64,000 bases of DNA. Origin: an uncultured Bacillota bacterium. Lineage in GTDB: Bacteria > Bacillota_I > Bacilli_A > RF39 > UBA660. This document shows, piece after piece, positions 53,801 to 56,011 of this stretch. Every line of letters starts with the position of its first letter. The first letter of the stretch is position 1. Where the stretch lies: the NCBI GenBank assembly GCA_905205665.1, contig CAJLEF010000001.1, positions 15,120 to 79,119 on the forward strand, written 5' to 3'. The notes under the pieces are model-generated. The model was not told the DNA's origin. It did no database searches and saw only the letters and a program-made list of their open reading frames with translations. Position numbers and translations under genes: made by a program.

Positions 53801-56011
53801 ATGTTAAACGAAGGTGTCCATATAGAGCAAATAGATGGTATTATTTGGTTTCGACCTTTAAATGAGGACTCTAAAATATTATTTTTACAACAACTTGGAA
53901 GGTGTATCAGTGCTATTTGTGAAGATAATAAGGAAAGAATTCCTCTTGTTATAGATTTAGTTAATAATACTTTAAAGTTTAATTTTTTAAGAGACTTAGA
54001 ACCAGAAAAAGATGATTTAAGCAGATTAAAATCTATAGCCACTTGGATTCGGCATTTTAATAAAATGCCTGATATTCGTGTTTCAGATCAAAAAGAAAGT
54101 AATATGGCTATTTTTTTACGAAAAATAAAACGACAATATTCTAAATTTATAGACGATACAAAATTAGAAATACAAACTGTAAAAAGAAAACAAATTATTG
54201 AGCAAATTATTCAAGTAGGTAGTGAATTTGATTTGTGGAATTATGAATTTCCTAAAGAAGATAACGATTATGTCCAGAAAAAAATGGATTCCTCAGAAGA
54301 TTTATTTTCTAAATTATCTATAACAGGCGTATTAAGAAGTCTTTACAACCTATATAGAGAAACCGATGATTTAATAAATGCAAATAAGGCTATTATTTTA
54401 AAAGAAATAGCCGTGTACTTGCAAAACCAGCCTAATAAAATAACCAATTACAGTGCCATTGATGAAAGACTTAATTCAACAGGAGGTAAAATAAGCGTTT
54501 ATTTAAACAATAATAGAAAAAAAATTATCGAACAGTTAAACGAAAATGAAAATGCCAAGTATATTTGCGATTACTTTGGCTGGTTAAACGAACAGATAAG
54601 TATGGATGATATATTAAAAGAAATCACGGAATACTTACAAAATCAAACGAAGCCAATAACAAATTTTAGGATAATTGAAGAAAGGCTTAAAATAACAGGT
54701 GGTAGAATAGGTATTTATTTAAGTAATAATAAAGCAAAAATAGTCGAAATGGCCAAAGAAAATGAGAATGCTAAGTATATTTGTCACTATTTTAGCTGGC
54801 TAGAAAAGAAAGCTGATGTAAAAGATATTTTAGAAGAAATCACGGAATACTTACAAAATCAAACGAAGCCAATAACAAGTCCTAGAACAATAGATGATAG
54901 ACTTAAAACAACGGGCGGTAAAATAGGTTATTATTTAGACCACAATAAAGAAAAAATTATCGAACAGGCCAAAGAAAATGAAAATGCCGCGTATGTTTGT
55001 GATTACTTTGGCTGGTTAGATAAGAAAGCAAGTATGGATGATATATTAAAAGAAATCACGGAATATTTACAAAATCAAACGAAGCCAATAACAAGTCCTA
55101 GAACAATAGATGATAGATTAAAAATAACAGGAAGTAAAATGAGCATTTATTTAGTTAATAATAAAGAAAAAATTATCGAACAGGCCAACGAAAATGAAAA
55201 TGCCAAGTATATTTGCCATTACTTTGGTTGGTTAGACAAAAAAATCACCATGGACGATATTTTAAAAGAAATTATGGAATACTTACAAAATCAACCTAGT
55301 CCAATATCAAGCCCTGATATAATCGAGGATAAATTAAAAACAACAGGAGGCAAAATAAGTAACTATCTAAAACGCAATAAAGAAAAAATTAGTGAACTTG
55401 CTTTGCAAGAAAACGAAGAGGCTAAATTTATCTATAATTATTTTGGTTGGTTTGATAAAAAAATAATCGTAACTATAGATGTTGCCTTAAAAGAGATTGT
55501 GGACTACTTGCGCTCACACCCTAATAAAATAACTAATTATCATAATATTAGTGACAGAATTCAAATGAAGGGTGGTAAGATTGGCAAGTACTTAGATTCT
55601 CATAAAAAAGAAATAATAGAACTTGCTTTACAAGAAAATGAAGAAGCTAAATTTATTTGCCATTATTTTGGTTGGCTAGATAAGAAAGCAAGTATGGATG
55701 ATATTTTAAAAGAAATCACCGAATACCTGCGAAATCAGCTTCAACAAATAACAGATTTTAGAAGAATAGAATATAAATTAAAAACAACTGGAAGCAAAAT
55801 GGGCAATTATTTAGCATACAATAAAAAAGAAATAATAGAACTTGCTTTACAAGAAAATGAAGAAGCCAAATTTATTTGTAATTATTTTAAAGTTTTTCAA
55901 AAAGATTTATATAAAAGATTAGATGAACTTGCTAATGATAATAGTCATTTTCAAAATGCTAAAAATATCTTAGAAGAAAGTAGGGATAAGAAAGATGGAA
56001 GAACAATATAA
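50813..56011 (+). CDS. Very large SF2 (DExH, ResIII-type) helicase with an orphan N-terminal region and C-terminal tandem helical modules
   Basis: ATG 50813 after GGTGGA. Helicase motifs: Q/Ia KPYQREAI, I LPTGTGKS, II VLDELH, III GMTATPER, V-VI NEGVHIEQIDGIIWFRP...QQLGRCIS. Residues 1-~540 match nothing I recognise. Residues ~1195-1695 are seven tandem ~72-aa units. Confidence 0.8.
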   Translation: MIKNVFDINHFNVFSDEENYYFFRALEDGDIKLIQNKTIVDEKGNLKKLVTDREVYGETIFKKSDALSLEQMLEHVKMNYNKHTNCISFSTNANVALDYGRNVFHDKYVMLKVPKDEANKKLIFAGQYMLEQINQKLEDYYHSLKQNQKEDALVKYYFDFINNASNEEQLDKVRKMITKDYVNESDSIFVGGLDKITNSLNYGALNQEQNFLKNKIYLKMDIMNRHHPVLKKIGNRFLIHTIGNAFSSIEFIHYNDVEGGIKEVSPEIMDVLSLLQQLEETPLIKELKEEVIKKINEGVKMTTHFDLEQYDTNAFKKSLDLEKVYELTKGRMSYQKAITTYTKTYTLVKSKLRKEKSLSLLKEIINDRKYDAVIEKMREKTYGIESGLTNRISSKGNIRLSESVNLQIVESERYLLDYVNKMDISKLEDVLQNPFAELQSLIVSNYKEEQSFDAWFLNNLFGLIDWSYYNVQENLSESQKKLLLTNSFPKNSLGKIYHKLKEKKFDDKAIVNIFLMWIIRKMDKVDANNCVSLDELEEFFGCNKIKNTQIILKPYQREAIQNINEAYKYHDFTSVILPTGTGKSYVSLSEMHYMEIEINKLDKNKHARMLYLAPNEYILNQLERIIALNYRSNYPFYYRDKEIVKSVFPNLTLCTYQYLNQGKGNSDIINNKYDFIVLDELHRAGASEWQKSIDKLLENQTAKVLGMTATPERDTDKRDMTEIFAKKYGYTEEEILAERHLSYNMDLLDAIERGIIHNPKVINCEYSLIKDGSLDELELKIDDIIDESKKKSKKSEYERIRKEINEADGIDKILNENLSLDGKYIVFIPVARKKNGVYTNTESGKELTETQAQSMIKAYQNLMNQLLFSGQYLKKHHKPLQNIYHKINQKEVLSKEELNYLNEEKENILLLVKLHINNMPNALQTFANDMALAIINYMNWTPLIDTKIASILKNKLKDEIETYCMLSDNSQKQNAKNLANFNSSKSSKKKFMFVIDMLNEGVHIEQIDGIIWFRPLNEDSKILFLQQLGRCISAICEDNKERIPLVIDLVNNTLKFNFLRDLEPEKDDLSRLKSIATWIRHFNKMPDIRVSDQKESNMAIFLRKIKRQYSKFIDDTKLEIQTVKRKQIIEQIIQVGSEFDLWNYEFPKEDNDYVQKKMDSSEDLFSKLSITGVLRSLYNLYRETDDLINANKAIILKEIAVYLQNQPNKITNYSAIDERLNSTGGKISVYLNNNRKKIIEQLNENENAKYICDYFGWLNEQISMDDILKEITEYLQNQTKPITNFRIIEERLKITGGRIGIYLSNNKAKIVEMAKENENAKYICHYFSWLEKKADVKDILEEITEYLQNQTKPITSPRTIDDRLKTTGGKIGYYLDHNKEKIIEQAKENENAAYVCDYFGWLDKKASMDDILKEITEYLQNQTKPITSPRTIDDRLKITGSKMSIYLVNNKEKIIEQANENENAKYICHYFGWLDKKITMDDILKEIMEYLQNQPSPISSPDIIEDKLKTTGGKISNYLKRNKEKISELALQENEEAKFIYNYFGWFDKKIIVTIDVALKEIVDYLRSHPNKITNYHNISDRIQMKGGKIGKYLDSHKKEIIELALQENEEAKFICHYFGWLDKKASMDDILKEITEYLRNQLQQITDFRRIEYKLKTTGSKMGNYLAYNKKEIIELALQENEEAKFICNYFKVFQKDLYKRLDELANDNSHFQNAKNILEESRDKKDGRTI
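54395..55891 (+). repeat. Seven in-frame tandem repeats (216, 216, 216, 216, 225, 219 nt, plus a last partial unit) inside the helicase gene
   Basis: Units start at 54395, 54611, 54827, 55043, 55259, 55484 and 55703. Consensus: ILKEITEYLQNQtKPITs.r.IddRLKtTGGKIG.YL..NKEKIIEqAkENENAKYICdYFGWLDKKasMDD. Units 2-4 share long identical nucleotide runs. Confidence 0.9.

Follow-up and report, generated by a model that had tools for sequence, protein, structure and literature searches.

The stretch of DNA analysed here is a window of 64,000 nucleotides (nt) from contig CAJLEF010000001.1 of an uncultured Bacilli metagenome-assembled genome (MAG) from the human gut (assembly of 1.13 Mb, 88.8% complete; G+C content of the window, 27.7%), and its subject is a helicase gene at 50813-56011 that ends in an array of seven tandem repeat units. 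Position numbers are those of the window, amino acid (aa) numbers for the helicase domains and the array are those of protein P0001, and the helicase gene, its parts and its partner gene all lie on the forward strand. The protein has 1,732 residues, counted from the ATG at 50813 of its open reading frame (ORF), and comprises an N-terminal domain of ~546 aa without family assignment (50813-52450), a superfamily 2 (SF2) helicase motor (52460-53908) composed of a ResIII/DEAD region, a long insertion and then Helicase_C, and the repeat array, which starts at 54395. The motor was assigned by Pfam (ResIII, E 1.1e-20, and DEAD, E 1e-10, at aa 554-720; Helicase_C, E 1.6e-06, at aa 938-1036), and an NCBIfam search of the helicase protein gave no assignment; for the repeat units, neither NCBIfam nor PADLOC provided a usable match. 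Between motor and array lie a conserved pre-array segment, SIATWIRHF...KRQY (54032-54139; pattern DL..L..I..WI..h..lPd.nS...E..y..L..I...Y), and an FDLWN linker motif (54227-54241), which precedes the repeat array in all members of the helicase family described below (pattern [ILVFM]DLW[NDQEST] in 43 family proteins). An acidic ORF of 86 aa (isoelectric point, pI, 5.0) at 55995-56255 overlaps the helicase gene at its stop by 17 nt and is translationally coupled to it.

The array consists of seven in-frame units of ~72 residues, exactly where the initial annotation of this DNA had placed them, at 54395-54610, 54611-54826, 54827-55042 and 55043-55258 (units 1-4, 72 aa each), 55259-55483 (unit 5, 75 aa), 55484-55702 (unit 6, 73 aa) and 55703-55918 (unit 7). 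Unit lengths are 216 nt for the first four, 225 and 219 nt for the next two and at least 189 nt for the last, whose envelope in a hidden Markov model (HMM) built from the seven copies spans aa 1635-1706 and whose last helix continues into a short C-terminal tail (..YFKVFQKDLYKRLDE..). This HMM gave 129, 132, 138, 140, 124, 129 and 108 bits for units 1-7, respectively, far beyond chance, and TRF, which had been proposed as a check on the gene, found a tandem period of 216 in the array with 6.5 copies, 73% matches and a score of 988. The reading frame is unbroken through all seven units. The units had also been described as near-identical in DNA and, on that ground, as recently duplicated, which proved to be overstated: unit pairs are only 61-85% identical in DNA, with units 3 and 4 the closest (85%), and 46-81% identical in protein, and the longest exact run common to any two units is 51 nt. 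Long identical runs reported for units 2-4 were recovered in units 2 and 3 as a 43-nt string (at 54620 and 54836), of which unit 4 has only the last 28 nt, and the variant LALQENEEAKFI reported for units 5-7 is present in all three (aa 1533, 1608 and 1681). Because many of the differences between units are synonymous, overall selection on the units looks purifying. The pre-array segment had been regarded as a degenerate unit; a segment does lie at that place, but its comparison with the units by hhalign covered the first helix only and was not significant (P 0.004-0.27), and it is kept in every member of the helicase family, whatever the array type, as a family-wide linker element rather than a decayed copy. 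Two further kinds of candidate were rejected, namely weak Pfam matches within the array (MinC_N_1, Vir_act_alpha_C, WH_Rok and HTH_12), which were confined to single units at near- or sub-threshold scores and are taken as noise, and a spurious 2-bit match of the unit HMM in the helicase insertion (aa 873-946).

The structure of units 2-4 was predicted with AlphaFold2 from an alignment of 33 homologous three-unit windows. The model had a mean predicted local distance difference test score (pLDDT) of 85.8 and a predicted template modelling score (pTM) of 0.45, and each unit in it contains three main helices, in agreement with the three-helix module that had been proposed from the sequence: H1 (residues 2-10), a kinked H2/H3 (33-47) and H4 (52-60), with a long loop and a small beta bridge after H1. 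The model suggests that single units are confidently folded and, since the pTM is low, that their mutual arrangement is uncertain, as in flexibly linked beads. The unit consensus is ILKEIxEYL...TGGKIGxYL...YFGW, and variability is highest at positions 6, 10-14, 20-23 and 38-39, which map to H1, to the long loop and to the H2 surface.

To our knowledge, helicase-associated (HA) domains are represented by one nuclear magnetic resonance (NMR) structure and one report of DNA binding, have no known biological role and are among the least understood accessories of helicases. The Pfam family of these domains, PF03457, has a gathering score of 28.4 bits, which was used as the criterion of membership; the window array shows the general organization expected of the family, that is, a helical module of ~60-75 aa with three helices in seven tandem copies C-terminal to an SF2 helicase. 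Four indirect lines tie the window units to HA. First, BLASTP aligned the window array with the array of protein P0048 unit by unit over 509 residues (29% identity, E 2e-24). The unit profile matches 23 proteins among 1.84 billion representatives, and its distant matches P0048 (72 bits) and P0050 (47 bits) are above the PF03457 whole-protein cut-off. Second, hhalign connected the window units with the intermediate units of P0048, P0050 and P0045 (97.8% probability) and these intermediates with HA (P 1e-4 to 8e-4), always in the same register. Third, canonical HA arrays occupy the same position in members of the same helicase family: three of these (L051, L058 and L093), whose N-terminal domains are 31-38% identical to that of the window protein, carry 6-7 canonical HA copies (233-425 bits), several further members also have such arrays, and the arrays start at aa ~1106-1201 in canonical-HA members and at aa 1199 in the window protein. 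Fourth, a Foldseek search of the three-unit model against viral predicted structures returned a Mimivirus "putative helicase domain protein" as the sole significant match (E 5e-4, probability 1.0, 186 aligned columns, 22% identity), with a phage "Helicase associated domain" protein as a non-significant match in the same list. The HA profile of the genus in turn matches PDB entry 2kta_A (E 4.7e-4), which is the HA domain of BVU_0683 (residues 627-691). DNA binding has been reported for this domain (Mills et al. 2013, as cited in PMC12191111).

Several results weigh against this relationship. PF03457 had no match to the whole protein at E<=1 or to single units at E<=10, so the check with this model that the initial annotation had suggested came out negative, and direct hhalign comparisons of a 145-unit alignment with HA profiles from the same genome, the genus and the helicase family were not significant; the resemblance to HA noted there is supported only indirectly, through the four lines above, and not by the Pfam model or by direct profile comparison. 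The unit profile did not reach 2kta in a sequence-profile search of PDB, nor did the intermediate profile. In addition, P0048 reaches its Pfam HA score by adding up weak matches in its single repeats, none of them individually significant (P0050 likewise adds up weak matches), and Foldseek of the three-unit model against PDB found nothing significant, only solenoids such as PUF and designed helical repeats with TM <0.25. The first two of the three signature Trp residues of HA are replaced in the window units (by Ile/Val and by Tyr, respectively) and the terminal G-W is kept, whereas all three are retained by canonical HA units in this genus (one where H1 begins, one in LGxW of H2 and one in the terminal G-x-W). 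The units are also near neutral (mean charge -0.4, pI 6.8; net charge of the window array, 0), whereas canonical HA units are basic (mean charge +1.9, pI 8.1), which weakens a simple electrostatic model of DNA binding. A six-frame search of the genome with PF03457 gave no match over the window array, and the same model scored 55-64 bits per copy on the six HA domains of another helicase of this genome. On balance, the four indirect lines lead us to regard the units as a rare branch of the HA repeat that has diverged strongly and lies outside the Pfam family as now defined.

The other HA helicase of this genome lies outside the window (G000:C1:91424-94411; L008 1925-4912) and has 995 aa with six canonical HA domains. 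Of the 37 species in the genus, 10 have HA helicases, and the number of HA copies in these ranges from 3 to 9.

The number of units varies among relatives of the window protein, as had been predicted from the sequence. Thirty-two homologues have 3-8 units, with the array starting at ~aa 1178-1194 in the full-length proteins and earlier in two N-terminally truncated ones, and genome representatives extend the overall range to 2-9 (2 units in L076 and 9 in L041, from Clostridium sp. CAG:433). Within the cluster of 90% identity, a length of 1,732 aa with 7 units is the usual form among complete members, and one member (P0059) has 1,659 aa and 6 units. At the DNA level, the 6-unit allele was found in three samples (L036-L038), which are 99.44% identical to the window gene apart from one clean deletion of 219 nt (55649-55867), so that one unit length across units 6 and 7 is absent. 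The junction of the deletion is located inside a 46-nt identical run common to these two units, whose copies at 55602-55647 and 55821-55866 were recovered by an identical-run search and represent the putative recombination substrate; judged from this junction, the 6-unit allele is a signature of unequal homologous recombination. Single-nucleotide polymorphisms (SNPs) between the 6- and 7-unit alleles are 4.5 times as dense in the array (17 in 1,278 nt) as outside it (11 in 3,702 nt; Fisher p 9e-5). Gene conversion between units is suggested by units 1-4, where 8 of the 12 SNPs introduce a base that another unit has at the equivalent site. Similarity between units is greater inside a protein (71%) than from group to group (52%). 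A collapse of repeats during assembly seems unlikely, as the contig names are SPAdes-style and the 46-nt run would be shorter than the larger k-mers usually used by such assemblers.

A tblastn search of species-representative genomes with the N-terminal domain gave 136 confirmed loci, all in MAGs of gut Bacilli and Clostridia, which shows that the window protein belongs to an unnamed family of 1,300-1,900-residue helicases that is widespread in these gut bacteria. The hallmarks of this family are an N-terminal domain with a YYFFR motif, the SF2 motor, the FDLW linker and a variable repeat array, and an array following the DLW motif was present in every complete member scanned, with periods of 69-112 aa. 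Besides the members with canonical HA, the unit type of the window was also detected in L041, L043, L044 and L076, and the other arrays of the family, with periods of 84-112 aa, are recognised by no model. At least seven C-terminal repeat types were distinguished in loci L041-L117 (periods 69-78, 84-85, 89, 92, 95, 101-103 and 108-112 aa), and up to four paralogues occur in one genome (e.g., CAKPBJ01 and CAKOSN01). Several members of the HA type and of the 111-aa type end in a common tail of ~70 aa (..ELKSKINYL..DIFSM..YGISLE..), which the window protein does not have.

The N-terminal domain had no Pfam match in its first 550 residues, and two PDB sequence-profile searches with it were empty. 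It contains the invariant motifs YYFFR, TNCIS-x-S/T-S/T-N...YGR and G-x-AFSS-x-E-x-x-HY. An AlphaFold2 model of mediocre quality (pLDDT 68) was compared with PDB by Foldseek, and the top matches were the ADP-ribosyltransferase (ART) toxins CARDS, TreX and TreTu, all of them non-significant (E 1.7-6.7). The motifs YYFFR, CIS-x-S/T-S/T-N and SS-x-E are compatible with the R-S-E pattern of ARTs (triad of Arg, Ser-x-Ser and Glu), which sequence profiles do not support, and an ART-like fold of this domain is therefore a weak lead only, based on the predicted model.

The 86-aa ORF has a counterpart with 70% identity at the same position in L040, where the surrounding genes otherwise differ, and it also adjoins family members L041, L043, L044, L063, L070 and L049, of which L063 and L070 have other array types. 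No family match was found for it. Judged from this recurrent arrangement, its product is probably a functional partner of the helicase.

At the other end of the helicase gene, the ORF can be extended upstream to a GTG at 50801; the database version uses the ATG at 50813, and the database representative (P0002) begins with MIKNVF. A purine-rich GGGTGGA (50803-50809) lies upstream of this ATG, and a promoter-like site, TTGGCT-17-TATAAT (50757-50785; consensus match only, 10/12), lies upstream of the gene, just after the T-rich hairpin of the preceding gene remnant.

The helicase gene is accessory, because it was found in only two of the 37 species of the genus, its relatives lie in unrelated neighbourhoods, it is split in one lineage and decayed genes surround it. 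The neighbourhood in the window consists of housekeeping and decayed genes, with no recognisable defence island. In the split lineage (P0061 + P0062, on four contigs), a gene that is otherwise identical appears as two separate calls, of 596 and 1,124 aa, which implies a disruption just after helicase motif I, at aa ~596-609 (~nt 52590-52640). Differences between strains were also observed in neighbouring genes. Two adjacent ORFs of 373 and 374 aa at 57125-59417 are halves of one gene of 813 aa in the 6-unit strain (L036 12096-14537), to which they are 96-98% identical in DNA, and the window lacks ~135 nt of the junction region. A second difference concerns the rlmD-like methyltransferase gene that lies between the GerA operon and the GNAT gene: strains with the 6-unit allele have this gene alone, whereas the window (46864-48886) has the full gene and, upstream of it, an additional TRAM-domain ORF (46933-47559).

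Considering all these observations, we favour an explanation in which the seven-unit helical array is the C-terminal tail of an accessory SF2 (ResIII/DEAD-type) helicase of 1,732 residues in a small-genome gut bacterium of the Bacilli. The array changes through unequal homologous recombination and, apparently, gene conversion, which gives 2-9 units among species and 6 or 7 units among near-identical strains. By analogy with HA and with effector-motor-sensor enzymes, it probably serves as a multivalent substrate-binding or target-selecting tail, which would hold or choose the substrate of the helicase, most likely nucleic acid, and the N-terminal domain together with the coupled 86-residue protein would supply the remaining activity. 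Such a role fits the logic of N-terminal effectors and C-terminal sensors described for defence nucleases, HA fusions included, in PMC12191111. For the explanation as a whole, that is, a diverged HA-type array that recombines and acts as a binding or target-selecting tail, our confidence is moderate.

The alternative that survives best, which we consider possible and clearly less probable, is that the array is a sensor for the recognition of proteins or ligands and that the whole protein is an effector-motor-sensor enzyme, e.g., of an anti-mobile-element system, in which the target would be specified by repeats that evolve fast, with the N-terminal domain as the effector. The neutral charge of the units would suit this role, as would the great variation in repeat type and number among paralogues and the patchy occurrence of the gene, with its differing neighbourhoods between groups and its disruption in some strains; however, many of the unit differences are synonymous and selection looks purifying, and the genes around the helicase are of the housekeeping or decayed kind. 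PADLOC gave a partial match to its mREase_IV model (Type IV restriction helicase), which points in the same direction, but the match has only 44 bits and covers model positions 489-603 (115 of 945) in the RecA2 region, and no significant match to any defence family was obtained. The R/S/E-like motif pattern and the ART-toxin-like Foldseek matches of the N-terminal domain would likewise suit an effector, although this similarity is non-significant in fold (E>1, pLDDT 68) and absent in sequence. The effector and sensor logic of defence nucleases, as presented in PMC12191111, is compatible with a sensor as well. A related proposal extends to the entire family, whose interchangeable arrays (canonical HA, the neutral units of 72 aa and five or more other types with periods of 84-112 aa) would be fast-evolving specificity modules that select the target, combined with an SF2 translocase, an ART-like modifying N-terminal domain and the 86-aa protein as a regulator or immunity partner; we regard it as improbable.

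It also seems doubtful that the units have an origin entirely separate from HA, in which case a helical repeat of other ancestry would have taken the place of an HA array and come to resemble HA by convergence. Module replacement clearly happens in this family, since it hosts unrecognised repeat types with periods of 84-112 aa, and the non-significant direct comparisons of units with HA profiles are what such a replacement would leave; on the other hand, the homology to P0048, P0050 and P0045 is significant by BLASTP and hhalign, two of these proteins (P0048 and P0050) pass the Pfam HA cut-off, the intermediates align with HA in one register at P about 1e-4, and unit length, helix order and the terminal G-W are common to the window units and HA. 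That the seven-unit array is an assembly artefact, produced by collapsed or expanded repeats, is very improbable, because, even if short-read assemblers do break inside such arrays (P0056, P0057, P0058 and P0067 end there at contig edges), the units differ by 15-39% in DNA with no identical run above 51 nt, the frame is intact throughout, and the 7-unit form of 1,732 aa recurs on several independent contigs, where it is represented by six or more different protein variants, and in a second species-level genome (G006).

What is new here is a rare variant of a module that is known but little understood, for which changes in copy number are now well documented. HA-type arrays can diverge so far that the Pfam model no longer detects them and still keep their position and unit length, array turnover by unit gain or loss and gene conversion is fast even between strains that are 99.4% identical, and whole array types are exchanged within one helicase family. 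Divergence, turnover and exchange together make the array the obvious candidate for the region with which these motors select their substrate. The family also offers a natural experimental series on a common chassis, with 2-9 units, basic or neutral units and different unit types, and neither its N-terminal domain of 550 residues nor its small partner gene has been annotated so far.

Among known systems, SauUSI-type Type IV restriction enzymes, which combine a phospholipase D (PLD) nuclease, an SF2 helicase and a target-recognition domain, resemble the window protein in architecture only: in both, a ResIII/Helicase_C motor stands between a non-motor domain at the N terminus and a putative recognition region at the C terminus. 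In the window protein, however, no PLD or other nuclease motif and no DUF3427 or SRA-like domain was detected with Pfam, and its assignment as a SauUSI-like Type IV restriction enzyme was rejected in view of this result and the short PADLOC match. The HA domain itself is much closer: window units and HA share a length of ~62-75 aa, three main helices and tandem copies C-terminal to ResIII/DEAD SF2 helicases, the register of H1, the Pro-containing loop, the 'xG-x-[WY]-[LI]' helix and the terminal 'G-W', and they are linked by apparent transitive homology through P0048, P0050 and P0045 and by the place of the window array, which is that of canonical HA arrays in sister helicases. The two differ in the 'QR' of LGxWxxxQR, which is N-K or H-K in the window units, in the last helix, which has its own E-N-E/D-A-K-Y-I-C-x-Y-F-G-W signature, in charge, which is near neutral instead of basic, and in occurrence, as the window unit type is very rare. 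With regard to whole proteins, SF2 helicases of gut Bacillota with HA arrays, among them P0048 and the 995-aa protein encoded elsewhere in this genome, have a homologous motor (27-29% identity) and likewise end in a tandem array that differs in copy number from genome to genome; these helicases begin directly with the motor, whereas the window protein adds an N-terminal domain of 550 aa, a longer insertion in the motor and a diverged type of repeat unit.

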